The position numbers were made by a program, and so were the translations under genes. A DNA stretch of 64,000 bases from Candidatus Bathyarchaeota archaeon (lineage in GTDB: Archaea; Thermoproteota; Bathyarchaeia; Bathyarchaeales; Bathycorpusculaceae). The notes below the pieces were generated by a model. It was given only the letters and a program-made list of their open reading frames with translations. It was not told the origin of the DNA and ran no database searches. The stretch is from contig CAWHVC010000003.1 of the NCBI GenBank assembly GCA_963832745.1, positions 32,001-96,000 of the forward strand, in the 5' to 3' direction. This document shows positions 10,138 through 47,955 of this stretch, in pieces. The number at the start of each line of letters is the position of its first letter. Positions within the stretch are counted from its first letter, which is position 1.

Positions 10138-10644
10138 TCCCGTTTGGATAAAACGGCACCTTGAATGCATCACATAGTGTTTATTGATAAATTGCTGCGA
10201 ACAAATTATCTTAAAAAAGTGAAAAAATGGAAAATGAAGCTAACGTAACAAAAATTGTATTTGATACTTTTTGCTTTATAGATAAGTTCCAAAAATGCAA
10301 GAATAACAGAAAACATTATAAAATACCTGTATCTTTGTTGAACTTTTTTATTCGTCAGGGCTTTTTCCAATAATCTTTTATGGGTCCGTTACTTGCTGAA
10401 ATTTTATGCGAAAATGGGTGATAATTGTCATAGCGGTAGCTATGTTTCTCGCATGCTTAATACTCCACCTTTATTCAGCGATTTCCTAGAATGCTTTGCA
10501 AATGACAAAATTACATTCATACACACTACTGATGAAACCCCGTTTTGTTATCTTCCACATTTGTTTATAGTCGTAGCCAAAACAAACATTCACAATCATC
10601 CCAATCAAGATACTTCTCGCAAACAAATACGAGAAAGCCATAAT

Positions 10645-17346: not shown

Positions 17347-18816
17347 TTACCTTGACACAACTGCCAAGAATGGTTCAGGTCCCATATCGGTTGTCGCATA
17401 TACAGCCAATGCTATACTCCAAAAGACGTCATCGTGTGTTCCCTGCGGATGGGAGAAACCAATGTTTCCGTCTCTTCGCAGGTCATATCGTTCCACATTA
17501 AGCTCAGTGCATATGTCGCCATGGTAGGGGTGTTCCCAATTAAGTAAGGGATAGAAGAATTGTTTGTTTAGCAGTCTCTGTTTTAACAGACTTGCCATTT
17601 CACTTTTTCTAGGCACACTAAAGGTGACGCCCTCAGCGTTATCAACTCCTGCTGCTTCCATGTCAGCAATAAAGCTTGGACCTTCACGGGTAAAATCTAC
17701 TCTAATGCGTTCAAAACCTCCCCAGCGATCCTGCAAAGCTTTAATGTAAGCTATAACAGGCGCATATACGGTTGGCTGCTTGAAGATTTTTAGGTGACGC
17801 AAATAGAGCAAGTCGTTTTGACGCTCTAAAACTGAGAAAACCGTGTAATCTTTGGTTTGAGCCAAATCTAAGCCAGCAAAAAAGTCTCCTTCCCTTGAAC
17901 TTTGGGGATCAAAAGCATAAAGTTCCTTTTTGCAGTTCTTTACAGTGCCAATGCAAGATGCAATTAAGCTCTGATTTAGCCAGACGTTGTCATCTTCTAC
18001 CCATTCAGCTTGCATTTCTCTTTGCCAACGTGAAGGGTCATCACCCATCTGAGTCTTTATCTGCGCAATAATGTTGGGCTTTAAGGGGCCTTTTGGGCTT
18101 AATGCTTGTTCATATGTGACATGCGAGGTTTTAAAATTGTTAAATTTCTGGTGAGTAAAGATCTTGTAGAAGACGCTGTCGGTATGCCAAGGAGTGCTGC
18201 TACAAACGAATTTACCATCAGTAGTACCCAGCGTGTAAAGGATTGCATCATATAGGTCTTGATCGTTAGCCACGAAATTGAACTCATCCGCATAGACCAC
18301 ATCTAGCGTTGGACCTCTGATGGTTTCAGGGTTGTTGGGAAAAGCCTCAATGCTGCTCCCATTGACAAAGTGGATCTGCGTTTTTTGCGGCTTAAAAACG
18401 ATGCTTCGCGGTAGTTTATGAGCAAAAGCTGCTATACGTGCTATGATTCGTTTGGTTTGACGCCAAGATGGCCCCACTATGCCGATTGCAACATTTGGGT
18501 GGGTAACTGCGTACTTTAGCAGTAGCGCAGATATGGTTTGGCTTTTGCCGCTTTGTCTACACCATCTGGCAGCGGTGAACTGGTTATTTTCAAAGAGCTC
18601 AACAAACTCTTTTTGATAATCATAGAGTCTAAAACCCAATATACATTCAAAAAAGTCGACAGTGTTAACGCTTAATTGTTCCATCTGTCTAGTAACTGTT
18701 TGCTTAACTTCATCATGGTCCCGATCAATCTCACGAAATTTAGCTAAGAACCGGTTGGGTTGAAAAGTTCTAGCTTCTTTCTTGGATTTCTTTGAGCATC
18801 TGTCGTAATTGCGCAT
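17347..18816 (-). CDS. terL: Viral terminase large subunit (ATPase plus RNase H-like nuclease)
   Basis: LYDYQ Q motif, Walker A RQSGKS, IRG, Walker B VVYADEF, SSTP coupling motif, GLDLA and HDD nuclease residues. Confidence 0.9.
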   Translation of the reverse strand: MRNYDRCSKKSKKEARTFQPNRFLAKFREIDRDHDEVKQTVTRQMEQLSVNTVDFFECILGFRLYDYQKEFVELFENNQFTAARWCRQSGKSQTISALLLKYAVTHPNVAIGIVGPSWRQTKRIIARIAAFAHKLPRSIVFKPQKTQIHFVNGSSIEAFPNNPETIRGPTLDVVYADEFNFVANDQDLYDAILYTLGTTDGKFVCSSTPWHTDSVFYKIFTHQKFNNFKTSHVTYEQALSPKGPLKPNIIAQIKTQMGDDPSRWQREMQAEWVEDDNVWLNQSLIASCIGTVKNCKKELYAFDPQSSREGDFFAGLDLAQTKDYTVFSVLERQNDLLYLRHLKIFKQPTVYAPVIAYIKALQDRWGGFERIRVDFTREGPSFIADMEAAGVDNAEGVTFSVPRKSEMASLLKQRLLNKQFFYPLLNWEHPYHGDICTELNVERYDLRRDGNIGFSHPQGTHDDVFWSIALAVYATTDMGPEPFLAVVSR

Positions 18817-19204
18817 TTTCTTCTTCCATTTTCTTTAACTTGATCTCTATTTCTCGATAATGGGCAAAATCCGCAGCAAGTTCTTTGTACTTTTCACAAA
18901 TATTGGCCACCAACTGTAAACGCTGTACCTCAAGCTTTGTTAGCCCAGGTTTAACAGAAGCCCGCATGGCACCCGCCATTATTTTAGTGGCCTCTTCAAT
19001 ACTGGGTAACTCTTTAGGCAAAACTATTGAGTTATCTACATAACGTTTAACATGCAAATCCAAATTCAAGCGTTGGGCTTTAACAATCACAGCTTTGGGC
19101 GTCTTGTTTAGTATAGCAGCAATCTCTTCAACTTTTACGTTATTCTCAATTAGGGTTTTGAGCTGTGACTCTTCTTGAGATGTCCATTTTCTGCGTTGAA
19201 CCAT
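18770..19204 (-). CDS. Putative terminase small subunit (N-terminal Myb/HTH-like domain, C-terminal coiled coil)
   Basis: RRKWTSQEE...EEIAAILNKTPKAV; directly upstream of and overlapping terL. Confidence 0.6.
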   Translation of the reverse strand: MVQRRKWTSQEESQLKTLIENNVKVEEIAAILNKTPKAVIVKAQRLNLDLHVKRYVDNSIVLPKELPSIEEATKIMAGAMRASVKPGLTKLEVQRLQLVANICEKYKELAADFAHYREIEIKLKKMEEENAQLRQMLKEIQERS

Positions 19205-36667: not shown

Positions 36668-36795
36668 GATTATTTCTTAAAAATTAAACGATTTATAGTT
36701 TATGAAGCCTATTTCCCGTTTCTATCTTTCAAAATTGTTTTTGCCTAAACCAGTTTGCGCGATTATTTTTATTCAACAACCCGCATTAGAGCATG

Positions 36796-36878
36796 TTGCC
36801 TGTGAAGAAAACACACGTCAGTCGGAGAAAGGATTTGGTAATCCCAACAATGATGTCAGTTAACGAATTCTGAGGCAC
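36796..36878 (+). ncRNA. Candidate C/D-box guide sRNA with internal hairpin
   Basis: TGCC-t-GTGAAGA(C)-14nt-CGGA(D')-GGATT/AATCC hairpin-ATGATG(C')-14nt-CTGA(D)-GGCA. Confidence 0.65.
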
Positions 36879-37095
36879 ACAAAACAATAAACAAACCGTA
36901 TGTTTACAGGGTTGACGAGCGGAAGAAATTTGAACATACGTGCGAGCATAGATGTCACCGCATATTCTCTTACTTTAATTAGGCAACTGCATTTTACCTG
37001 ATATTAAACTCACTCGTTTAAAAAAATGTGTTTCTAAAAAAATTGAAAATTTCAAGTCCCAAAAAAGGATGAAATAATCAGAACTTAATGGTTAT

Positions 37096-38053: not shown

Positions 38054-38099
38054 GTGGCGGGTGGGGAGGGATTTGAACCCTCGACCCCCAACTTAGGAG
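38054..38099. repeat. att direct repeat (left), tRNA-Arg 3' portion
   Basis: gtggcgggtggggagggatttgaaccctcgacccccaacttaggag, identical to 46184-46229. Confidence 0.95.
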
Positions 38100-38998
38100 T
38101 CCGTACCTTTGGGAATAAATATTCAAGATTCAGAAGTCCTTTAGGAGTCTTACAATCACCAATAGTCATGGAATTAAACTTTGAAGAGTACAAAGTTTTC
38201 TTAGCTAACAAATACACAAACAAACAGTATGCAAAAGCACAATTCAGCAATGCATCAAAATACTCAGAATGTTTAGAAAACCCCGCAAAGATGTTGTCTT
38301 TTCCAGAGTCAAAAAGAAAGAACATCCTCAAAGCTATGGTCTGTTTATCCAAGTATTTGGGTGTCTATGAAGAGTACAAAGCTAAACTGAAAAGCTACGA
38401 TATTAAATGGGGCAATGAAGACACAGCCTTTAACGGATTCTTAGCAATATTCAACCATAAGCACGACACATTACCGGATTATTATAAAGAAATACAGCCA
38501 ATACTCCACGAGAACGAGAGGTTATTTCTAAGATTCCTTGCCGTGACCGGATTAAGGAAGAATGAAGCAATAACCGCATTCAACATGATAATAGAATTGA
38601 ACAGTAAGGGAGAGCTTAGCGAGTATTACAATTCAGAGCTTCAAGTTTTAGAACATTTCAAGTATGGTAAATTATTTTTGAGAGGCACTAAGAACGCTTA
38701 CATCAGCTTTGTTTCAAAAGAACTAATCAATCAAATATGCGATTCTGAGCCAGTTACCTATAATGCTATACACTGTAGGTTTATGAGAAAAAAGCTTAAG
38801 CTGAGACTCAAGGAACTAAGAAGTTACAATAACACTTACTTAAGGAAAAATGGCGTTATCTCTGAACTTGTAGATGTGTTAGCGGGCAGAGTTCCTAAAA
38901 CTGTATTCTGTAGACACTACTTAGGGGAATCAATGAAACCGTTTAGTGCTCAAGTTTTAGGTATAGAAGCTAACTTGGAGAACTCTTTGATTCAATAA
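38054..38998 (+). CDS. int: Tyrosine integrase, C-terminal (catalytic) fragment
   Basis: TGLRKNEA (R), RGTKNAY (K), KELRS (R), LAGRVP, RHYL (Y); begins with att-encoded VAGGEGFEPSTPNLG. Confidence 0.9.
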   Translation: MAGGEGFEPSTPNLGVRTFGNKYSRFRSPLGVLQSPIVMELNFEEYKVFLANKYTNKQYAKAQFSNASKYSECLENPAKMLSFPESKRKNILKAMVCLSKYLGVYEEYKAKLKSYDIKWGNEDTAFNGFLAIFNHKHDTLPDYYKEIQPILHENERLFLRFLAVTGLRKNEAITAFNMIIELNSKGELSEYYNSELQVLEHFKYGKLFLRGTKNAYISFVSKELINQICDSEPVTYNAIHCRFMRKKLKLRLKELRSYNNTYLRKNGVISELVDVLAGRVPKTVFCRHYLGESMKPFSAQVLGIEANLENSLIQ

Positions 38999-39851
38999 GG
39001 AGTTAAAAAAGGGTGAGGCATGGAAATATCGCTACTGCTATTAGATGATGCTATTAAGACAGCTTAGAGAAAAAGAGAAAACTCAATGCTCTAAAAGCTG
39101 ATGGGAAACAGAAAGCAGTATGGGACTTACTTACTATAGAACATAAAACTACAGCCCTCCAACTCTTCTGTTTTCTCAAAATACACCCACAAAAAAAAAT
39201 AAGTTGAGTATTCGTAGCGAAATTCGTATTTTAAACACTTATTTTAACAAAAGAAGCCAGATTTAATCCCTGTTTCAGAGGTTTTATTTCAACATCAAAA
39301 GACCATGTACTTGCCCTACCATTCTGCTTTTTCCACAGATACACCAACAAAAAAATCTGCTGAGCAGATATTGATTTTAAATTCCCCATTTTAAATTTAA
39401 GTCACAGAATAACCCCTATTTAGAACAAAAAGTGCAGGTCTTATCATTTACACAAGCGGTCATAAACAGTGGCGTTACGACCCTAAAGCGGAATGGGACC
39501 TATTTTAGGGTTGAAATATAATCCAGTCACTGGATATCCCATAAAAATGAAGTAATTGTTAAAAGAAGGTCAAAACAAGTAGCATTTAGAAATTATTTTT
39601 CGAGTAGTGAACTGTTTAGGGTAGAGATATAATTGCCTAAAGCAATACCCCTAAAAAATAAAGCAATTTAAGAAATAAGGGCAAAACAAAGCGATTTATG
39701 AGCAGTTTATTTCATGTTTTTATTTGAACCATAATCCTTTAAATTTAGTTTTCTCAAAAGGTATATTGTGCATCCATTAGCTTGATTTTTATGAGGTAAG
39801 AAGCTTACCCTTCTAACCCTCTTTCAAGCTACATTCGGTAAGGAATGAAAA

Positions 39852-40418
39852 ATGAAGAAATTTACTCCAAGATATGAAAGCGGTATTCCATTAGAGAAAG
39901 CGGTAGTCAACTTCTTGGGTAAAATGGGCATATCCAATTCTCATAACGACTTTTCACCTTCAAGATATGTGAATGATAACCACAATGTTGTCGATGTAGT
40001 TCTCAAAGAAAGGGGAGAAGACAAAGCACTTATCGAGTGTACTAATCCAAAAGAAACCACTTTTATGAATAACAGGATAATGAAGTCCAAGATTGAATAT
40101 TTTCACCGAGCAGACCCTGAGCATAAGAATCTCTGGGTTTTGCTTATTAGCTTCTTAACTTTCAGCAAAGAAATAATGGAGTTAATAATCAAAGAAGGAA
40201 TCCAGTTAGTAGTTCTTAACAAGAGAGTTACAAGCGAGAATATTCACAAAGTTATCAGGGGATTATTCACCAGCCCACTATTCACTCTGTTACGACCCTT
40301 TAGTAGAAAGTACCGAGAGAACCCAAGAAAGGCAGAACCAACCAAAACCAGAAAGACAACTTTAACCGATAAGGTTCCAGCTAAGAACAAATCATCTAAA
40401 CGTGTAAGAGAAGAGTAA
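39852..40418 (+). CDS. PD-(D/E)xK-like nuclease-fold protein (putative)
   Basis: LEKAVVNFL...VDVVL...LIECTN. Confidence 0.55.
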   Translation: MKKFTPRYESGIPLEKAVVNFLGKMGISNSHNDFSPSRYVNDNHNVVDVVLKERGEDKALIECTNPKETTFMNNRIMKSKIEYFHRADPEHKNLWVLLISFLTFSKEIMELIIKEGIQLVVLNKRVTSENIHKVIRGLFTSPLFTLLRPFSRKYRENPRKAEPTKTRKTTLTDKVPAKNKSSKRVREE

Positions 40419-40557
40419 GAGTATAGACAGCTATTACTACTTATATCAACATCAAGGGCTAAGAAAAAATCTGCAAATACTCAGAGTTATTGAGTTTTTG
40501 ACTGGTTATAATAGGAAAGTAAAACCCGAAAAATAGCAAATTTAGGATGAAAAATTT

Positions 40558-40917
40558 ATGCCAACAACAAGAAGCATAGGAAACGGATTATTGACTACAG
40601 GTAGGCGAGTTTACAGAGGTAAGGATATGCAATTAGTCTCTTGGACTCAAAACCAATGTAAAGTATGTGGAAGATTTCTAAGCAAAAGACAAATGCTCTA
40701 TTGTGAAAAGCATGGACAGGGAAGTAAAGAATATTTTATTTTAAACAAAGTGAATTATCATAGGTACAATAAAGACTATCGAAGAACACACCATAAGCAA
40801 GAACTGGAAAGACAAAGCAGGTACAATAAACAGCATCCATACATCAAAAAGGTTAGATGGTTCATTCAGAATAAACCTCAAAGTCCGAAAGTAAGACCAC
40901 ATTCTCAACTCAGTTAA
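40558..40917 (+). CDS. Zn-finger protein, paralog A
   Basis: GNGLLTTG...LVSWT...CKVCGRFLSKRQMLYCEKH; basic tail. Confidence 0.7.
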   Translation: MPTTRSIGNGLLTTGRRVYRGKDMQLVSWTQNQCKVCGRFLSKRQMLYCEKHGQGSKEYFILNKVNYHRYNKDYRRTHHKQELERQSRYNKQHPYIKKVRWFIQNKPQSPKVRPHSQLS

Positions 40918-41181
40918 TTCCCTTCTATTGAGGGTAAAATTGCACTATGCAATACCTTCAAGGATTAATTCTTTCAGTGAATTAGGTAACTTAGAGCCTG
41001 TTTATTGAGTGTAAAAATTTACTCAGTAAATACCCCTAAAAAATGGTTATTTCACTAAAATAAAGCGTTTTGTAACCTTATATGGAGTCAAGTTGTTCGA
41101 ACCATATCACTTAAATGCTTTAGCCATCAATCATGAGATATGAGTAATAATTACAATCAATTTAGGTGTTGACTGTAATAA

Positions 41182-41394
41182 ATGCAGTCAAATAACTCAA
41201 AAAAAGAAAATACACAAGTATGCCCCTTCTGTGGTTCACGAATAAGACAAAGATGTTCATGTGGAAGCAACCATACTGTCAAAGTAGGCTTCAATGTTAA
41301 CAGGCAAGGCAAGAGACAAAGACACCTTTGCCGAGATTGCGGAAGAGTAACAATTGAAGATAAAATAATTCCTTTCAAGAAGGCAGTTACCTAA
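41182..41394 (+). CDS. InsA-like Zn-ribbon protein
   Basis: CSCGSNHTVKVG...GKRQRHLCRDCGR. Confidence 0.65.
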   Translation: MQSNNSKKENTQVCPFCGSRIRQRCSCGSNHTVKVGFNVNRQGKRQRHLCRDCGRVTIEDKIIPFKKAVT

Positions 41395-41648
41395 TGGGTA
41401 GAAAGAAAGTTTACCCAGATAACGCTTCTCGACAGCGAGCATGGCAAAAGAAACAGAAAGAGAAAGAATTACAGCAACAGATTGAGACAGCACAGAAAAC
41501 AAACAGCGACCAAGCTAATCAAAAGAAAAAGAGCTTTGAACAATTAGTAGCAAAGTGGTTTAACGGTAAGACTGTCCAGCAAGCTAAGGAAGCATTTCAG
41601 CTTTACAAAAGAACCTATCAGAGTATAGGACAGGACATGATTTTGTAG
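41394..41648 (+). CDS. Small basic putative DNA-binding protein
   Basis: MGRKKVYPDNASRQRAWQKKQK; TAATG coupling with the upstream gene. Confidence 0.65.
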   Translation: MGRKKVYPDNASRQRAWQKKQKEKELQQQIETAQKTNSDQANQKKKSFEQLVAKWFNGKTVQQAKEAFQLYKRTYQSIGQDMIL

Positions 41649-41662
41649 GCATCACTAAGAAT

Positions 41663-41878
41663 TTGGATGAAAGAACGTCACTCAAGAACGGTATTACAAT
41701 AGGGAATATGGAGCAGTTTCTTGAAAGCTTTGATGAGCCTATTTGCTGTCCTATATGTGGCTATTACAGAAGCGGTTTAGCAGATGAGTGCCCCGAGTGT
41801 ACATTGAAGGTAACTAACCCGAAAGCTTGGAAAGAATACCGTAGGGATTATCAACCAGCAATAGCGGTAGAGGAATAA
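41663..41878 (+). CDS. Zn-ribbon protein
   Basis: CPICG...CPEC. Confidence 0.6.
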   Translation: MDERTSLKNGITIGNMEQFLESFDEPICCPICGYYRSGLADECPECTLKVTNPKAWKEYRRDYQPAIAVEE

Positions 41879-41880
41879 GC

Positions 41881-42135
41881 ATGAAGTTTGCACACGCCAT
41901 CAGAAAGATTTTTTTCAAGTCTATTGACGCAGAGTTGGCATACCTCTACATGAATCAAGCATATCAAGAGAAGTGTATTGAGCTATTCATGAAGAATTTT
42001 AAGCTCACCGAGCGAGAATTGGAGTTACAGTCTAAGATTCTTCTGAACTATACCGAGACATTTCAGGAGTTAAAGAATGAACAAGGGCTTACAATCCCCT
42101 TCCCAGAAAAAACGGTTGTAAAATATAATGTCTAA
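41881..42135 (+). CDS. Hypothetical helical protein
   Basis: GAGG SD, operonic spacing. Confidence 0.55.
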   Translation: MKFAHAIRKIFFKSIDAELAYLYMNQAYQEKCIELFMKNFKLTERELELQSKILLNYTETFQELKNEQGLTIPFPEKTVVKYNV

Positions 42136-42272
42136 AAAAGGTAAAATTATGAATCATGAAAAATGTGGATGTAATAGAAATGGGCGAGTAGTTTACTCAG
42201 ACCCAGAGCAAAATAATAATCAAGTGTCGAGGTTCAGCCTCGACTTAAGGAAACAGAGGGAAGTGAACCCGA

Positions 42273-42806
42273 GTGAGTGACCAATTAGCTAACGACCAAA
42301 TAAAAGAGCGTAAACTGATTCTTAGAAACGAAATTGAGCAGCTTACGTCTAAGTTAGGCAATCCAGACGCTTACACAACTAAAGAAGGTCAGCCTTTCCG
42401 TATCAGTAAAGAGTATGTTATCGCTAAAGAGGAACTAAACAAGAAAGTAGAAGAATACAATAGCTTGATAGAAAGCTTTGTCGTTGCGAACATAAAACTT
42501 AACAAGGTAATAACTTTCACAGATGGAAACTATACCATCAAATATATCCCAGAGAAAAACAGGTATGACTTTTACATTGGTAACGAATACCGAAAAGGAA
42601 CAGTAGCGTTCAATGAAGAGCTAACCGAGGCTACAGTGACATGCCCCACTATTAACTCAGACACTAAAGGGGAACTTGTGAATCACATCTACAAAGTAAA
42701 GATACTTGAGCCGAAAGACATCGTTGTAAAGAAAATAAAACCAAAGCCATGCTCTAAGATAGAAGAGGGTTTAGCCATGGTTAACCAAGATGTGCTATTG
42801 GGCTAA
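42273..42806 (+). CDS. Hypothetical protein (helical N-terminus, beta-rich C-terminus)
   Basis: 177-aa ORF in the element operon. Confidence 0.6.
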   Translation: MSDQLANDQIKERKLILRNEIEQLTSKLGNPDAYTTKEGQPFRISKEYVIAKEELNKKVEEYNSLIESFVVANIKLNKVITFTDGNYTIKYIPEKNRYDFYIGNEYRKGTVAFNEELTEATVTCPTINSDTKGELVNHIYKVKILEPKDIVVKKIKPKPCSKIEEGLAMVNQDVLLG

Positions 42807-42937
42807 AATGGGTTACGTTGTTAAGGATAAAGTTACAGGGCAATTTAGAAGACAAACTCCCGAAGAAATGGAAGCAAAAACAAGACCTGCTAAACCCGAA
42901 GGAAAGAGAGGAATAGCTCTTTTTAGAGGGGCAAGAA

Positions 42938-43213
42938 ATGAGCCTACAGGATAAGCAACGACAAATCAAACAACGGGACCAGAGAATACGAGAGCTTGAA
43001 ACAGCAAAGAATAGACTGATAAACAATAAGATTAGAAACGATAGAGCATTAGACCAAGCAGTAAGGAAAGCTAAAGACGATGGCAGAAAGTTCGTTATCG
43101 AAAAGCTCAAGACAGCGATACCAACTACAGCCCCAAGTTATTTTAAACCAGCAGCAAAGGCGTTACTCTCAGACCTTCAACGAATAATTAAAGATGAAGA
43201 GAAAAGAGCGTGA
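42938..43213 (+). CDS. Coiled-coil protein
   Basis: Heptad-like charged sequence; GAGGGG SD. Confidence 0.6.
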   Translation: MSLQDKQRQIKQRDQRIRELETAKNRLINNKIRNDRALDQAVRKAKDDGRKFVIEKLKTAIPTTAPSYFKPAAKALLSDLQRIIKDEEKRA

Positions 43214-43221
43214 AGTTGGAC

Positions 43222-43591
43222 ATGGTTTCTAAGCTGGAAAGCTTAGAGCTTAAGCTTATCGTGATGTTAAGCCTTGAAGAACCAAACAGAGCAGGATGCC
43301 AAGGCTCTTAGGCAAATCACGAACAGGGGTCTTTATCGGCTGGTCTAAGGAACGCTATGATAAGTACATCGAGACTCATGTTTTTTATAAGGACTACGAC
43401 CTCTCACCGAGCTTAGGGAACAGCACGAAAGAGAACTTAGCGATTGGAGAAAAGAGAGGGACCACACACTTAGGGTAAGCCTACACATTACTCTTAATCC
43501 TAACTTGACTGATTACGAGAAATGGAAGGAAATAGAAGAATCATATCCTTTGGAACCTGAAAGGGTAAGAGGCTGGATTCTATCGCGGTAA
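43222..43591 (+). pseudogene. Probable single gene broken by several frameshifts
   Basis: Protein-like blocks MVSKLESLELKL / GVFIGWSKERYDKYIE / LTELREQHERELSDWRKERD...GWILSR* in different frames. Confidence 0.4.
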
Positions 43592-43626
43592 AAGCATCTT
43601 AAAATTTGGAGAAAGATTAAAGAACG

Positions 43627-43983
43627 ATGAATAAAAAAAGTAGAAACTTTGGAAATGGCTTATCCTCTACAGGGTATAGAACATTTAAGAAAATCTGGAA
43701 TCCTTCTACAAAAGAAGAGATTAACGTACTTGTGGCATGGACAGATAGGCATTGTATTAAATGCAAAAGATTCCTCTCTTTGAGACAGCATAAGTATTGT
43801 TCTAAATGTAAACCAATAGAAGACGCTAAAATAGCAATTAAATCAACTACATCATGGCAAAAGAGAACAGGTAAAACATTTCAGTATTATCTTCTCATCA
43901 ACTCAGAATTTAAAGCAACAACGAAACTTAGAGGGTTTGTGAGTAGACATGCAGACGAGCTTGAAGTAGGGCAAATAGTCTAA
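43627..43983 (+). CDS. Zn-finger protein, paralog B
   Basis: GNGLSSTG...LVAWT...CIKCKRFLSLRQHKYCSKC. Confidence 0.7.
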   Translation: MNKKSRNFGNGLSSTGYRTFKKIWNPSTKEEINVLVAWTDRHCIKCKRFLSLRQHKYCSKCKPIEDAKIAIKSTTSWQKRTGKTFQYYLLINSEFKATTKLRGFVSRHADELEVGQIV

Positions 43984-44035
43984 AGTTTCCTTATTCAACT
44001 TTACCGAATATTTTTGTTCTCGGTAATCCTTTATT

Positions 44036-44632
44036 CTATGTTAAGATTGCTCCACAATGAAGACATTTAGATTCGTCTGATTTGTTCTTAGTTCCGCAGA
44101 ATTTACAGTATATCATTTCTGGAACTTTTCCTTTAGAAATAAGCATGTTAATAGCTGTTGCCCATTGTTGACTGGTAGCTTTTATTTGGTTCTTTATTGC
44201 CATGTTTCCAGCTATCATACTTCCAACCCCACCGAATAAAATTAGTCCAGTTGCAGACAAAGCAGTACCCGTACTGAGACTCAATTTAAAGTCTCTTTTC
44301 GTTCCATCTTTGAATATTATCCCTAAAGAACCATTATCTTCTACTATAGCCATTGTCATATCTGAAATGTGCCAGCATGTATTTTCAAATTTATCCCAAA
44401 AAGTGGGAAGTTTTACTCGGCAACGAAATTCTTTGTTTGTTAATGATGCGTTTTTGCATTTAAGCAAGACAGCATCTTCTTTGTTATAGGCTTCCTTTTT
44501 TGTTTCTAAATTGTTAATTGTTGTTTGTGGAGTTGTTGTGTTTATTACTGTGGTTTTATCTTCCCATCCTAAAGCTTCTTTCATTTTACATGCCAATTCT
44601 TTTTCTTCTTGACTCTCTTCTCTTTTTGACAA
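44036..44632 (-). CDS. Membrane-associated protein with C-terminal Zn ribbon
   Basis: Gly-rich hydrophobic segment; CKFCG...CLHCGA. Confidence 0.7.
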   Translation of the reverse strand: MSKREESQEEKELACKMKEALGWEDKTTVINTTTPQTTINNLETKKEAYNKEDAVLLKCKNASLTNKEFRCRVKLPTFWDKFENTCWHISDMTMAIVEDNGSLGIIFKDGTKRDFKLSLSTGTALSATGLILFGGVGSMIAGNMAIKNQIKATSQQWATAINMLISKGKVPEMIYCKFCGTKNKSDESKCLHCGAILT

Positions 44633-44764
44633 TTTAACACGAGCCCAATAATAACACTCAATTCCTACTTTTTTGTCATGAATATATTTAGGATTTATGA
44701 ATTTCTGCTAAGTTATCTTATGATAAGTCTTAAATCTGCATAGCGTAGAAATAACCATAAATTG

Positions 44765-45145
44765 CTAAGAAGGTGAGTATTGAACATAAATGTTTTCGCT
44801 TGTAGTAGGATTATACGTAAGAAGATAGAATGTGTTATCTACTCTCAAGATATTAGCACCTCGACGAATATCATTAAGAAAAGTTGTTTTAGAAACTTTA
44901 GTGAAATCATCGAAACTGATTTGTTTCTCTATTTCTGCTTGCTGTGTACTGCTAATAAGGTTCCAGTTGATAATGGTGACTCCACCATTAGTGCCAATAT
45001 CCTCTTTTAATTGCTTCTCAAAAGAGTCTGCTTTTGAAATTGCATTTGCAGAGTTATTTACAATAAATAATTGAAACGACAACGTGACTACGATTATGCT
45101 TAAAGCGATAATCACGCCAATTAGGGCTAAATATTTTCTTTTCAT
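44765..45145 (-). CDS. N-terminally anchored or secreted protein
   Basis: MKRKYLALIGVIIALSIIVV signal anchor. Confidence 0.7.
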   Translation of the reverse strand: MKRKYLALIGVIIALSIIVVTLSFQLFIVNNSANAISKADSFEKQLKEDIGTNGGVTIINWNLISSTQQAEIEKQISFDDFTKVSKTTFLNDIRRGANILRVDNTFYLLTYNPTTSENIYVQYSPS

Positions 45146-45264
45146 TACCTTTTCTTATTTCTTTATTTTTTGGAACGCTTATACGATTTATGAATCTGGA
45201 ATAAAAATGAGAAGACTATAACTTTTAAATCTGTATAGCGTAGAAAAAGAATTGAGATGGAAGC

Positions 45265-45501
45265 ATGGATGAGAGACAAATAGTCAAAGATGCTCTAAAA
45301 AGAGAATACCAGAAAAAGATAGCTTCTCAATTAGTTAAAGAATTTAGCCTTAGTAGTGATGCAATTAGCTCAACGGAAAAGGGCGAGATACTATTCGCTT
45401 ATTCATTAGGGGCTAACCCCAACACGGCACTCGGTTTAGTTAGGTCTTTAATGGTTGAATTAGCAAACACAAAAGCAGAATTATGGCTTCAATCACAATA
45501 A
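45265..45501 (+). CDS. Hypothetical protein
   Basis: TTTAAAT promoter upstream; helical ORF. Confidence 0.55.
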   Translation: MDERQIVKDALKREYQKKIASQLVKEFSLSSDAISSTEKGEILFAYSLGANPNTALGLVRSLMVELANTKAELWLQSQ

Positions 45502-45861
45502 ACTAATGATAAGAATTAACAGAGTATTTCAGAAAATAGAGCAAGACCAAAGTAAAAAGTTCCCTATTAAGAGGGTTAACAGTCAGTAGTAATCCAAAAG
45601 TATCATTTAGAACATTTCGTAAGTAAATTGAGACAATTACATATCGCTTCCGCTTTCGTGCGTGTCTGCACTAACGCTTTCGCTGATGGTTAAAAGAAAA
45701 GAGGTTTTCTTTTGAATTTTTCAATAATAAAAAGACAACTAAGTTTTCTTTGGAGCTTTCGCCTTTCAAGCAAGAAGTAAAGTAGTGTAGCAATAATTCT
45801 ATGTAAGCTTTTATACCACCTTAACATACTTGTCAATACTAAGAAGTAAGGTGTTTGAGGG

Positions 45862-45984
45862 ATGAGAAAGAAAATCAACATATCCATTGATGAGCAGTTG
45901 GTAGCTTCACTTCAAGCAGAGGCAGTTAAGAAGAATATCAGTTTATCAAGGCTGATAGAAAATAAACTGAAAGGAATATCTTGA
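45862..45984 (+). CDS. Ribbon-helix-helix regulator MRKKINISIDEQLVASLQAEAVKKNISLSRLIENKLKGIS
   Basis: Typical RHH pattern; GAGG SD; directly upstream of int(N). Confidence 0.8.
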   Translation: MRKKINISIDEQLVASLQAEAVKKNISLSRLIENKLKGIS

Positions 45985-45994
45985 GGGACCAGTA

Positions 45995-46229
45995 ATGAAA
46001 GTAACCTGTCCAATCTGTAACATGGAAGGAATCTTAGAGCAAAGAGGTAACAGTCAAAGAGTATTGCATTACAAGGGCTTCATTAACGGTAAAAGAACTT
46101 ATGAAAAGCACACCATTCAGGGAGTAAATGGGAATAACTCTCTGGGAATAAAAAGTCTCGTTTTAGGCTCTAATAGTAGAAGAGTGGCGGGTGGGGAGGG
46201 ATTTGAACCCTCGACCCCCAACTTAGGAG
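45995..46229 (+). CDS. int: Tyrosine integrase, N-terminal fragment (CPIC...H...H Zn motif)
   Basis: Reads into the att as VAGGEGFEPSTPNLG in the same frame as int(C). Confidence 0.85.
46184..46229. repeat. att direct repeat (right), within the intact tRNA-Arg
   Basis: Identical to 38054-38099. Confidence 0.95.
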
Positions 46230-46326
46230 GCTGGTGCTCTATCCGTGAAGAATCCGTTAGACTCGGTACCAGCCCTTTTAGCCGATAGCCAAGCGAAATC
46301 TCCAATCCGTGCTGAGCTACTCACCC
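46185..46326 (-). tRNA. tRNA-Arg(CCT), encoded CCA, 64 nt of D-loop intron sequence (about 46241-46304)
   Basis: D stem GCTC/GAGC, anticodon arm CCAGC-CTCCTAA-GTTGG, T arm GAGGG-TTCAAAT-CCCTC. Confidence 0.92.
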
Positions 46327-46397: not shown

Positions 46398-46553
46398 CTA
46401 CTTCTTTTTTTCGAAATAAACGTGGTTTTCGTCTGCCCAGAATTGTACTGTGTCGCCTTTTTTTAGGTTTAGATGTGTGGCTACTTCTTTGGGGATTGTT
46501 ATTCTGAGGGAGTTTCCGACTTGCATGACGCTTACTTCTATCTTGAGGGGCAT
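46398..46553 (-). CDS. AbrB/MazE/SpoVT-family DNA-binding protein
   Basis: MPLKIEVSVMQVGNSLRITIPKEVATHLNLKKGDTVQFWADENHVYFEKKK (not in the ORF track). Confidence 0.85.
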   Translation of the reverse strand: MPLKIEVSVMQVGNSLRITIPKEVATHLNLKKGDTVQFWADENHVYFEKKK

Positions 46554-46642
46554 TGCTGTAACCTGTTTTATCAGAGTATTCCAAAGATACTTTTATAAGC
46601 ATTGCATTCTTTAAGAATACTATAAGAGTACTTCAAAAGTAA

Positions 46643-46975
46643 ATGGTGAACACGCGAACGAAAATATGCACAACCGATTCCGAGGTTCTTCTTAATCATT
46701 GTGAGCTTGAGCGTATGTTGCAGAAGGCTCGCTTAGAGGGTGCTATTGGTTACATTAATTATCCTTGTGAAGCGCTGGATGAAAAGAAAATCTGCACCTT
46801 AGCTGAGTTAAACGGGGCAGTCAGGGGCGACTGGGACAGTGCATGCGGCGCCGTTGGGCAGTTAATGATGGAAAACCTGCTGCTTGACGGGTACGCAAAC
46901 GGTTTAATGGCAAACATCAAACCAGAAAAGGCACAGGAGCAAGAAAAGCAACTCAACAAGCAACACCCAACATGA
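46643..46975 (+). CDS. Hypothetical protein, divergent from AbrB
   Basis: 110-aa ORF with TTTAAG promoter upstream. Confidence 0.55.
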   Translation: MVNTRTKICTTDSEVLLNHCELERMLQKARLEGAIGYINYPCEALDEKKICTLAELNGAVRGDWDSACGAVGQLMMENLLLDGYANGLMANIKPEKAQEQEKQLNKQHPT

Positions 46976-47214
46976 TGAACTGCCAGGTTTGTAAAGCTGC
47001 TACTGCTTGCAGCTTAACCCACAACCAGCCTGCAACGCAACACAAACGCAGACACCAAAAAGCAACCATCCACCAAACCCCCAGATTGTTGTTGTGCATA
47101 GACGTTTTTTGGCAACAACTACTACAATAAAACAAGTTAACAATTTCAGCATCTTAAGAGGGCATGCTTGATTAAGCCCAAAGCGCATTTAGGCTGAAAA
47201 GCTGGCAAAAATGG

Positions 47215-47955
47215 ATGATTGAAATACGGCAAACACCTGAAGGCAACGCTTTGATTCTGACTTCTGTCTCCGAATTCTGTGGCGCCATGGGATACTGCGA
47301 AGTACGCGTCCAACATTTCCTAAAAGGCATAAAGGCGCCCCAAACTAAAATCACATTGGATGGTATAGAGTCACATGAAAAAGAAGAAGCCTACGAACGT
47401 GAACACTTCAAGTTTGAACCAGTCACCAAAGAAGCACTATCTGATTTTACTAAAGACATAGAGTTTGCCCGCGAAGGTCTCTATACAAGGTTTCAGCGGA
47501 CACTTGTTTTCGGCGAAGAAACCCTATCGATACTGGTTTATGGTCGCGCTGATAAAGTGATGCGGAGCCAAGGAACCCTGATTGTGGAAGATTCCAAGTA
47601 CCCAACAAGCCGTGACAAGTACCAAGACAAGTTTGAACCGTTTGATGACCAAAAACTTCAGACGCTACTGTATTTGAACTCAAGTTTTAGCGAGAAAGGC
47701 TTAAGCTCGCAAGGGGACTGCTTTGAAATTAAATGCGAAAAACGTGCCTGGATAATCAACATTAAAGATAAGGCGACTCTTGAAAGCGTTAAAGTATTTC
47801 AGGGCTATCAAACAAAGCAAGCAGAAGATTTTCTTAACAAGAATCTAAGTAAGTTTGCGTTGTTGGTTTTAGGTAAAATGGAGCCTAAGCATCACGGGAA
47901 CCCCCGCAAGTGCCGTAGCTGTCGTTTTGATAACTGCCAATTTAGAACTATTTGA
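47215..47955 (+). CDS. Solo Cas4-like PD-(D/E)xK exonuclease
   Basis: N-terminal Cys (GYCE), GRADKV, VEDSK, QTLLY, C-terminal CRSC...C. Confidence 0.8.
   Translation: MIEIRQTPEGNALILTSVSEFCGAMGYCEVRVQHFLKGIKAPQTKITLDGIESHEKEEAYEREHFKFEPVTKEALSDFTKDIEFAREGLYTRFQRTLVFGEETLSILVYGRADKVMRSQGTLIVEDSKYPTSRDKYQDKFEPFDDQKLQTLLYLNSSFSEKGLSSQGDCFEIKCEKRAWIINIKDKATLESVKVFQGYQTKQAEDFLNKNLSKFALLVLGKMEPKHHGNPRKCRSCRFDNCQFRTI

Follow-up and report, generated by a model that had tools for sequence, protein, structure and literature searches.

In fuselloviruses and pT26-2-type plasmids, the attachment site attP lies inside the integrase open reading frame (ORF), so that integration into a transfer RNA (tRNA) gene cuts the integrase into two parts, Int(N) and Int(C), and direct repeats flank them; pSSVi likewise integrates through an SSV-type integrase. 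Islands of the PICI, cf-PICI and PICMI kinds measure around 5–15 kb; the integrase stands at one end, small regulators are present, and virion genes are partial or absent, with terminase genes in some of these islands. The window analysed here, a stretch of 64,000 nucleotides of contig CAWHVC010000003.1 from a Candidatus Bathyarchaeota archaeon, contains a small element integrated at a tRNA-Arg(CCT) gene, which we read, with a probability of about 0.65, as a degraded representative of an apparently undescribed family of small cryptic integrative elements. With fuselloviruses and pT26-2-type plasmids, the latter far larger than the window element, it shares the attP within the integrase ORF, the tRNA target and the split into Int(N) and Int(C) with direct repeats, whereas Pfam and PHROG comparison detected in it neither a capsid of the fusellovirus kind nor a DnaA-like ATPase nor a plasmid Rep, and its host is mesophilic (37–43% G+C). 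With the PICI-type islands it shares the size range, the integrase at the end and the small regulators, but a primase or Rep and AlpA were not found in it, it has no recognisable small terminase (TerS) and its host is an archaeon.

Among archaeal elements, the closest described class is that of the cryptic integrated elements (CIEs) of Thaumarchaeota, which span 2.6–98 kb and lack viral and plasmid hallmark genes (Krupovic et al., 2019; PMC6563490). In the part of that paper used here, many CIEs have no identifiable replication protein, ribbon–helix–helix (RHH) and winged helix–turn–helix regulators occur, one element (NitEve-E3) has an SSV1-like integrase that is split on integration, and the class has no signature genes. 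The window element fits this class as it is there described, being bounded by an integrase and att sites and lacking the hallmark genes of viruses, plasmids, integrative and conjugative elements and casposons; the integrase-bounded insert, the lack of a recognised replication protein, the SSV-type split integrase and the RHH regulator are common to both. The host class differs, genes shared beyond the integrase type were neither tested for nor found, and the family of the window element is defined by a conserved core and gene order, whereas the CIEs of that account have no signature genes. SSV-family 'suicidal' integrases are described, in the portion of the source consulted, in elements of hyperthermophilic archaea (PMC7253208). 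A 2025 preprint, as far as its accessible text goes, gives pSSVi and pSSVx, satellites of Saccharolobus spindle-shaped viruses that are thought to spread in helper particles, as the only archaeal satellites previously described, and adds candidate satellites (SRCEs) that are likewise tied to spindle-shaped viruses (doi 10.1101/2025.02.15.638363). pSSVi and pSSVx are, like the window element, small archaeal elements without a full virion module; they have plasmid-type replication modules and fusellovirus genes according to the same text, whereas the window family has neither, and its only link to viruses is a terminase of head-tailed-virus type in two relatives. For Bathyarchaeia, the text available to us of Duan et al. 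(2024; PMC10848311) describes four virus families, none of the size of the window element; these and head-tailed proviruses are the published Bathyarchaeia mobile elements that were found. Our literature search, which covered texts other than supplementary tables, where some may be listed, found no description of small integrative elements of Bathyarchaeia, nor, within the same scope, of archaeal satellites of head-tailed viruses.

The original prediction, made from the letters of the window alone, had proposed an 8,130-bp element integrated at tRNA-Arg, and this holds. The att repeats are direct, 46 nt long and 100% identical, with a spacing of 8,130 bp (Table 1); a 30-nt att core, with up to three mismatches allowed, occurs at exactly two sites in the window, and two matches were obtained in none of 100 shuffles. 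The repeat begins with the first anticodon-loop base and ends one base beyond the CCA of tRNA-Arg(CCT), a gene with normal acceptor, anticodon and T arms and around 64 extra bases in the D-loop, and the target is the 3′ part of the tRNA gene, which is regenerated on integration as expected of the SSV type. ARAGORN called no tRNA in the window and Rfam only a 5S rRNA, both missing tRNA-Arg(CCT) because of the D-loop insert; the orthologue in a genome of the same genus (G008) is 78 nt long, has no insert and is called by ARAGORN as tRNA-Arg(cct). The element is single-copy in the host genome (G000; 3.02 Mb, five contigs, 99% complete).

The tRNA itself shows further variation. In G017, tRNA-Arg(CCT) has a D-loop intron at the same position with another sequence, and the G008 gene is without one. 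At the G008 tRNA (L043, G008:C8 2193–3396), a degenerate att copy of 29–35 nt lies 1.1 kb away, and between the two stands a gene with an HPFxDGNGR (Fic-type) motif, read by eye; this site is a second, older insertion at a tRNA-Arg(CCT) hot spot.

The split integrase and the RHH regulator named in the original prediction were both confirmed. Int(C) matches PF16795 (E = 1.6e-10; 41.6 bits, cut-off 27) and the integrase family phrog_5127 (3.7e-14), and Int(N) and Int(C) encode an identical att-derived peptide in one frame that runs through both att copies, from which it follows that integration split the integrase gene, as in SSV-type elements. Residues resembling R..K..HxxR..Y were recognised by eye only, and a PDB sequence search with Int(C) gave no match and did not reach the SSV1 integrase. 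An Int(C) adjoining the same tRNA in G017 has 64% identity to it over 315 aa; that Int(C) (L042, G017:C104 1604–2512, minus strand) reads att in the tRNA-sense direction, so that the orientation of attP in the integrase gene is opposite, and the element in G017 is cut off by the contig end. The 40-aa RHH protein matches DUF6364 (31.2 bits, cut-off 27.3), with CopG_antitoxin and RHH_1 below their cut-offs, and the Arc-like repressor family phrog_3180 (1.5e-3); in G018, a copy with 77% identity adjoins Int(N), and Int(N) homologues stand beside RHH there.

For the remaining genes, 19 ORFs of the element were scanned against Pfam and PHROGs (threshold E ≤ 0.01), and, besides the integrase and the RHH protein, none of the 19 reached the Pfam cut-off or the PHROG threshold. 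These scans found no known Rep, primase, capsid or packaging ATPase, as had been noted earlier from the letters, nor a fusellovirus VP1/VP3-type capsid, a DnaA-like AAA+ ATPase, a large terminase, a portal or an HK97-fold capsid, although divergent archaeal capsids could escape Pfam. The sequence shows how the element arrived: an SSV-type integrase with attP in its own gene recombined a circular element with the 3′ part of tRNA-Arg(CCT), and the outcome was the split integrase and the perfect att repeats. Intact members of the family would excise to a circle in which the integrase gene is restored, and may rely on host replication, since no polymerase, primase or helicase is present.

The family is visible in the genus of the host. 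A profile of the element protein o177 found relatives in five of the 119 other species of this genus, all five in low-contig assemblies, and, in a sample of 400 other genomes from the whole class, in two, both of which belong to the genus; the family is, as far as searched, restricted to one genus of probable Bathyarchaeia, an assignment based on the named hosts of homologues, and its members measure 8–11 kb. Thus, the idea of an undescribed family is upheld by related elements in the genus together with the literature search. The original prediction had also suggested a search of metagenome-assembled genomes (MAGs) and IMG/VR for relatives; scans of IMG/VR with o188, o177, the o188 profile and the terminase and o177 of one relative (L054) gave none. 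All five related inserts are bounded at 8–11 kb by host genes, so that the possibility, raised at the outset, that relatives would be much larger and carry Rep or capsid genes is not borne out. The core shared by the family consists of a PD-(D/E)xK-fold protein paired with a Zn-finger protein and located next to the integrase, several clustered small proteins of Zn-ribbon and RHH type, and o177, a coiled-coil/beta protein with a basic tail.

Two layouts are distinguished. Type A inserts (L039 in G369 and L052 in G460) have eight gene families in common with the window in nearly the same order, namely o119, o188, o84a/o71, o84b, o177(+o54), o118, o91 and a 145-aa gene. L039, of around 8.8 kb, lies within the 3′ end of a protein-coding gene, and L052, which includes a collagen-repeat gene, lies between purA and an insertion sequence; both have unsplit integrases and occupy sites other than that of the window element, and the layout is therefore not the product of one deletion. 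Type B inserts (L053 in G472 and L054 in G473) have o177, o70 and a small Zn-protein family in common with type A, and their integrase family is that of L052. The slot of o119 and o188 is filled in L053 by a 549-aa ParB_N-domain protein (PDB ParB matches at E 5e-5; Pfam 26.0 bits, cut-off 26.3) and in L054 by proteins of 465 and 486 aa, for which a PDB sequence search gave no match. L053 is situated between SMC and a PQQ protein and L054 between FTR and HcyBio; since host genes (FTR and aRF1, SMC/ScpAB, HcyBio) follow at once, the type B inserts are at most around 10–11 kb long and contain no capsid or portal gene. A conserved gene set, with a nuclease-fold protein, two types of integrase and around ten ORFan families, defines the family, in which an archaeal island without capsid genes is linked to a terminase; the interest of the system rests on the family and this link rather than on the window copy.

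The window copy has decayed. In comparison with intact relatives, at least six frameshifts fall in four conserved core genes, at around 40400, 41639, 42789, 43323, 43405 and 43575. Homologues of o188 are 215–250 aa long, and their conserved C-terminus is found in the window in another frame; the C-terminus of o177 homologues corresponds to the ORF o54 (42790–42954), which follows a one-base insertion that is not in a homopolymer. The 154-aa protein of L039 is matched by the window in one frame over residues 1–82 (o84a) and in another over residues 83–154 (o71), and the 145-aa protein of L039 aligns by tblastn in four pieces that alternate between two frames. The operon of about ten tiny coupled ORFs of the original prediction is therefore inflated in number, as several of them are pieces of frameshifted genes (o188 with its C-terminal piece, o84a with o71, o177 with o54, and the 145-aa gene). 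Elsewhere the host genome contains 200 ORFs of at least 600 aa and 93 of at least 800 aa, so that the frameshifts are read as real decay, and for cover by ORFs of at least 150 aa the element lies below the first percentile of the 8-kb windows of its contig. Hence, the window copy is most likely a dead relic that is inherited passively with the chromosome. Its identical att sites, which had been taken to suggest recent or ongoing mobility, are no sign of such mobility in a copy with this many frameshifts, and by our estimate a 46-bp repeat can easily remain identical at such a degree of decay; the main use of the copy is to warn against taking perfect att repeats as a demonstration of activity. 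The o188 gene of L052 and the terminase gene of L053 are broken as well, which indicates that decay is common in this element family.

Some points weigh against this reading. The frameshifts are known from the assembly sequence alone, and the assembly may be locally poor; the integrase halves, the RHH gene and the two att copies are undamaged, a state also compatible with an element that can still be excised; the exact ends of the relatives are undefined, att repeats having been looked for and none found; and no origin, initiator or packaging signal was identified, so that the steps of replication and spread are what we infer from gene content. An element that is intact and active, with frameshifts that are local assembly errors or are read through, would account for the perfect att repeats, the uninterrupted Int(N) and Int(C) and the RHH gene, but we consider it improbable in view of six shifts within 8 kb against long host ORFs elsewhere, the o177 shift outside a homopolymer, three shifts within 300 bp of one gene, and the broken genes of L052 and L053. 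Similarly improbable is an origin by deletion from a larger head-tailed provirus, in which case the element would not belong to a lineage that is small by design. The heavy decay of the window copy, the lone terminase in relatives, one of them broken, and the collagen-repeat gene of L052 could be understood in this way; however, gene order and size agree among three type A copies, counting that of the window, which come from three species, occupy three different sites and use two types of integrase, an agreement that independent deletions would not produce, and no full-size relative was found in the 119 genus genomes, the 400 class genomes or IMG/VR.

The family of small cryptic elements, which remains the preferred reading, has its link to viruses through o177. 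Among cluster representatives this protein has 19 matches at E ≤ 1e-3, of which 18 have an aligned stretch, and the AlphaFold2 (AF2) model of the L039 protein (pLDDT 78.7) shows a pair of long helices along with a beta domain and a basic tail. With this model, Foldseek returned nothing at E ≤ 1e-3 from the PDB or BFVD; the ESM Atlas gave no usable match and a PDB sequence search with the o177 profile no match. Seventeen members compared with PHROGs hit 13 families, each through one member at E ≥ 0.01, and a terminase family in none of the 17; comparison by hhalign with the two kinds of TerS-like genes that precede terminases in the genus gave probabilities of 0.1–0.2. In L054, o177 stands upstream of a 491-aa large terminase, with one 47-aa ORF between them. 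This terminase matches PF03237 (28.4 bits, cut-off 22) and the T4 gp17 ATPase (E 0.004), and its Walker A and B motifs and acidic nuclease residues are invariant across 15 sequences. The same o177–terminase pair occurs in L053 with a broken terminase gene, and as the type B copies occupy different chromosomal sites, the terminase belongs to the element. The position of o177 suggests a small-terminase-like role, to which sequence, profile, fold and complex prediction added no support beyond gene position.

This arrangement opens the possibility, which we regard as rather unlikely, that the family comprises satellites of head-tailed archaeal viruses and that the window copy is a dead satellite. 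Here o177 would confer specificity in the manner of a small terminase and guide a large terminase in packaging the element into a helper capsid, the terminase being the element's own in type B and that of the helper in type A and the window element. In favour of this view, the o177–terminase pair occurs at two chromosomal sites, so that the terminase travels with the element, and the L053 and L054 inserts contain no capsid or portal gene and are directly followed by host genes; the size and the order of integrase, regulators, unknown module and packaging-side gene resemble those of PICI-type islands, and other o188-bearing inserts of 7–8 kb include an HK97-gp10-like head-tail gene. On the other hand, the o177 profile is unlike the TerS-like genes of the genus and without terminase PHROG or fold match, a terminase is lacking altogether from the type A members and the window element, and o188, o177 and the L054 terminase are without relatives in IMG/VR. 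The host genome, moreover, gave no Pfam match to a capsid, portal or gp10, so that no helper is visible. The fullest form of this view is slightly less likely still: the window element and its five relatives would be the first archaeal satellites known for head-tailed viruses, capsid-less islands of 8–11 kb in which an o177 unrelated to TerS recruits a terminase, carried or borrowed, with orphan terminase cassettes belonging to the same packaging economy. For intact members of the small cryptic family as we read it, spread would probably take place in particles that they do not make themselves.

The host genome has four terminase genes, all in isolated two-gene cassettes among host genes. One is in the window (17347–19204, minus strand), where the gene of a 489-aa large terminase (PF03237, 64 bits) is overlapped on its upstream side by a 144-aa helix–turn–helix/GcrA-like gene and lies between KatG/GNAT and UbiD/AcnX host genes, and the others are at G000:C3:444909–446751, C3:179086–181021 and C4:142540–143602. 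Terminase-like matches are present in 61 of the 119 other species of the genus, mostly within ORFs of around 450–500 aa, and a gene of 100–170 aa is found just upstream of the terminase in all 18 loci examined, three of which are those of G000 itself.

The other conserved gene of the core, o188, had been put forward as a PD-(D/E)xK nuclease. Its AF2 model (pLDDT 79.8) does show a restriction-endonuclease fold: Foldseek matched it to EcoT38I, MspJI, AF1548, NucS/EndoMS and Hjc (E of around 1e-4, probability 1.0), with query-normalised TM-scores (TMq) of 0.31–0.44 across these nuclease-fold matches. The proposal is thus borne out by the fold; D48, E62 and K67 are invariant across the homologues, and the conserved motif is ExT..K and not the canonical (D/E)xK. 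A PDB sequence search with the o188 profile gave no match. Among 5.8 billion proteins, 19 homologues besides o188 itself were found, all unnamed or 'hypothetical' and one from a Bathyarchaeia MAG; one homologue, encoded on a contig of 10,871 bp, is 83% identical to o188. The gene is found at 22 loci from metagenomes and one MAG, and, one o70 homologue excepted, no other gene of these loci is in common with the window. A comparison of 17 loci, many of them short contigs, places the o188-family gene 1–7 kb from an unsplit tyrosine integrase in seven. Stretches of around 7–8 kb run from the o188 homologue to an unsplit integrase in L019 (9659–16715), L020 (9965–17083) and L023 (10043–18474); the o188 homologue of L019 adjoins a tRNA-like gene, and the three stretches have an HK97-gp10-like head-tail gene and no terminase or capsid match among the ORFs scanned.

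These properties would also be compatible with an integrative plasmid-like element, in which an origin is opened or nicked by the PD-(D/E)xK protein together with its Zn-finger partner, and the free circle replicates after excision; we hold this to be unlikely, to about the same degree as satellites of head-tailed viruses. The o188 family is the most widely shared gene of the element, it adjoins the att end or the integrase, which is the usual place of the replication module of small islands, its three invariant residues are kept, and the corresponding slot of type B holds the ParB_N-domain protein. However, the motif is non-canonical, origin-like iterons were not found, no free circular contig was recovered, the longer o188 loci being stretches of longer contigs, and we know of no Rep with a PD-(D/E)xK fold. 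In the small cryptic elements that we favour, the nuclease-like and Zn-finger pair may fill the slot in which comparable islands keep an initiator.

Table 1. Features of the element and its tRNA target, by position in the window
Feature	Position	Strand	Basis or remark
Int(C), catalytic part of split SSV-type tyrosine integrase	38054..38998	+	PF16795, phrog_5127
attL, distal 46-bp copy of tRNA 3′ part	38054..38099	.	identical to 46184–46229
Repeat 'ATACCCCTAAAAAAT', copy 1, upstream of o188; possibly promoter-like	39631..39659	+	29-nt direct repeat, 79%
o188, PD-(D/E)xK-fold nuclease-like protein, truncated by frameshift	39852..40418	+	homologues, AF2, Foldseek
o188, out-of-frame C-terminal piece ('YLYQHQ..NLQILRVIEFL')	40408..40536	+	homologue C-terminus in another frame
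o119, Zn-finger protein, o118 paralogue	40558..40917	+	clusters with 43627–43983
Repeat 'ATACCCCTAAAAAAT', copy 2, upstream of o70	41016..41044	+	direct repeat of 39631..39659
o70, double CxxC zinc-ribbon protein	41182..41394	+	CxxC at residues 14 and 50
o84a + o71, one gene split by frameshift near 41639	41394..41878	+	154–155 aa in L039, L052
o84b, small conserved protein	41881..42135	+	38% identical to L039 85-aa protein, E 9e-18
o50, small ORF	42128..42280	+	no relatives found (Pfam, PHROG, L039 comparison)
o177 + o54, one gene split by 1-nt insertion near 42789	42273..42954	+	200–245 aa in relatives
o91, coiled-coil-like small protein	42938..43213	+	30% identical to L039 96-aa protein, E 2e-9
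Pseudogene of 130–145-aa protein, three frameshifts; listed 'o60' is one fragment	43283..43640	+	intact in L039, L052
o118, Zn-finger protein, two CxxC pairs	43627..43983	+	L039 comparison
o198m, antisense variable gene, C-terminal zinc ribbon, weak hydrophobic stretch	44036..44632	-	Zn_Ribbon_1 E 2e-4, below cut-off
TCTGCATAGCG motif repeat, copy 1; possible regulatory site	44723..44751	.	29 nt, 90% identical to copy 2
o126m, antisense gene, N-terminal membrane anchor	44765..45145	-	Kyte–Doolittle (KD) 1.74 window at N-terminus; no family
TCTGCATAGCG motif repeat, copy 2	45218..45246	.	29-nt repeat comparison
o78, small ORF	45265..45501	+	no relatives found (Pfam, PHROG)
RHH (CopG/Arc-like) regulator, 40 aa, directly upstream of Int(N) start	45862..45984	+	DUF6364
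Int(N), integrase N-terminal part, running into attR	45995..46229	+	att-encoded peptide and frame as Int(C)
attR, within functional tRNA gene	46184..46229	.	direct-repeat comparison
tRNA-Arg(CCT), integration target, ~64-nt D-loop intron	46326..46185	-	read by eye; aligned with G017 gene

Several of the small genes are related to those of the other inserts or to one another. The protein o119 is 58% identical to a 147-aa protein of L039, and in the ESM Atlas an o119-like protein gave only weak leads to viral double zinc ribbons (0.90–0.91); the C-terminal 80 aa of o118 are 45% identical to an 84-aa protein of L039, and its N-terminus is o119-like. Homologues of o70 are present in L018, L040, L053 and L054. 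At least four Zn fingers had been noted, and o70, o71, o118 and o198m have two CxxC pairs each. Of the two antisense genes described as membrane genes, o126m, the sole ORF of the element with a hydrophobic window, has a clear N-terminal anchor, whereas o198m has no KD window of at least 1.6. A homologue of o198m with 37% identity is found in G012, outside any recognised element.

The element contains two kinds of short repeat. A sequence similar to the first is repeated in L054 as 'CATACCCTTAAA(A)TAT'. The 29-nt TCTGCATAGCG repeat has only two copies in G000, both in the element, and also occurs in L041, L053 and L054; it was considered as a host CRISPR repeat and ruled out by this distribution, and a k-mer scan of the host genome found no CRISPR array. 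Sites of the form TCTG[CT]ATAG[CAT]G are at 44735 and 45230 in the window, at 10634 and 11649 in L041, at 9686 in L053 and at 9744 in L054; they flank the antisense genes of the window and the o198m homologue in G012, and in type B they lie between o177 and the terminase. Matches to the 29-nt version at 90–100% are present in many genomes of the genus.

The neighbourhood of the element includes features of its own. At 36757–36899, a non-coding stretch is 79–89% conserved in the six matching genus genomes (G016, G009, G001, G012, G002 and G014); it is a possible small RNA, for which no Rfam family reached the gathering threshold. A repeat of around 130 nt resembling a miniature inverted-repeat transposable element is located at 47004–47135 and has many copies per genome across the genus, with six or more places in G005 and G007. 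The region at 46398–47955 encodes an AbrB/MazE-type protein (PF04014), a 110-aa protein and a Cas4-like protein of 246 aa with a Cys cluster at its C-terminus; G008 and G017 lack these genes at the orthologous position upstream of the tRNA, and copies of the Cas4-like protein with 62–68% identity are found elsewhere in G001, G012 and G014.

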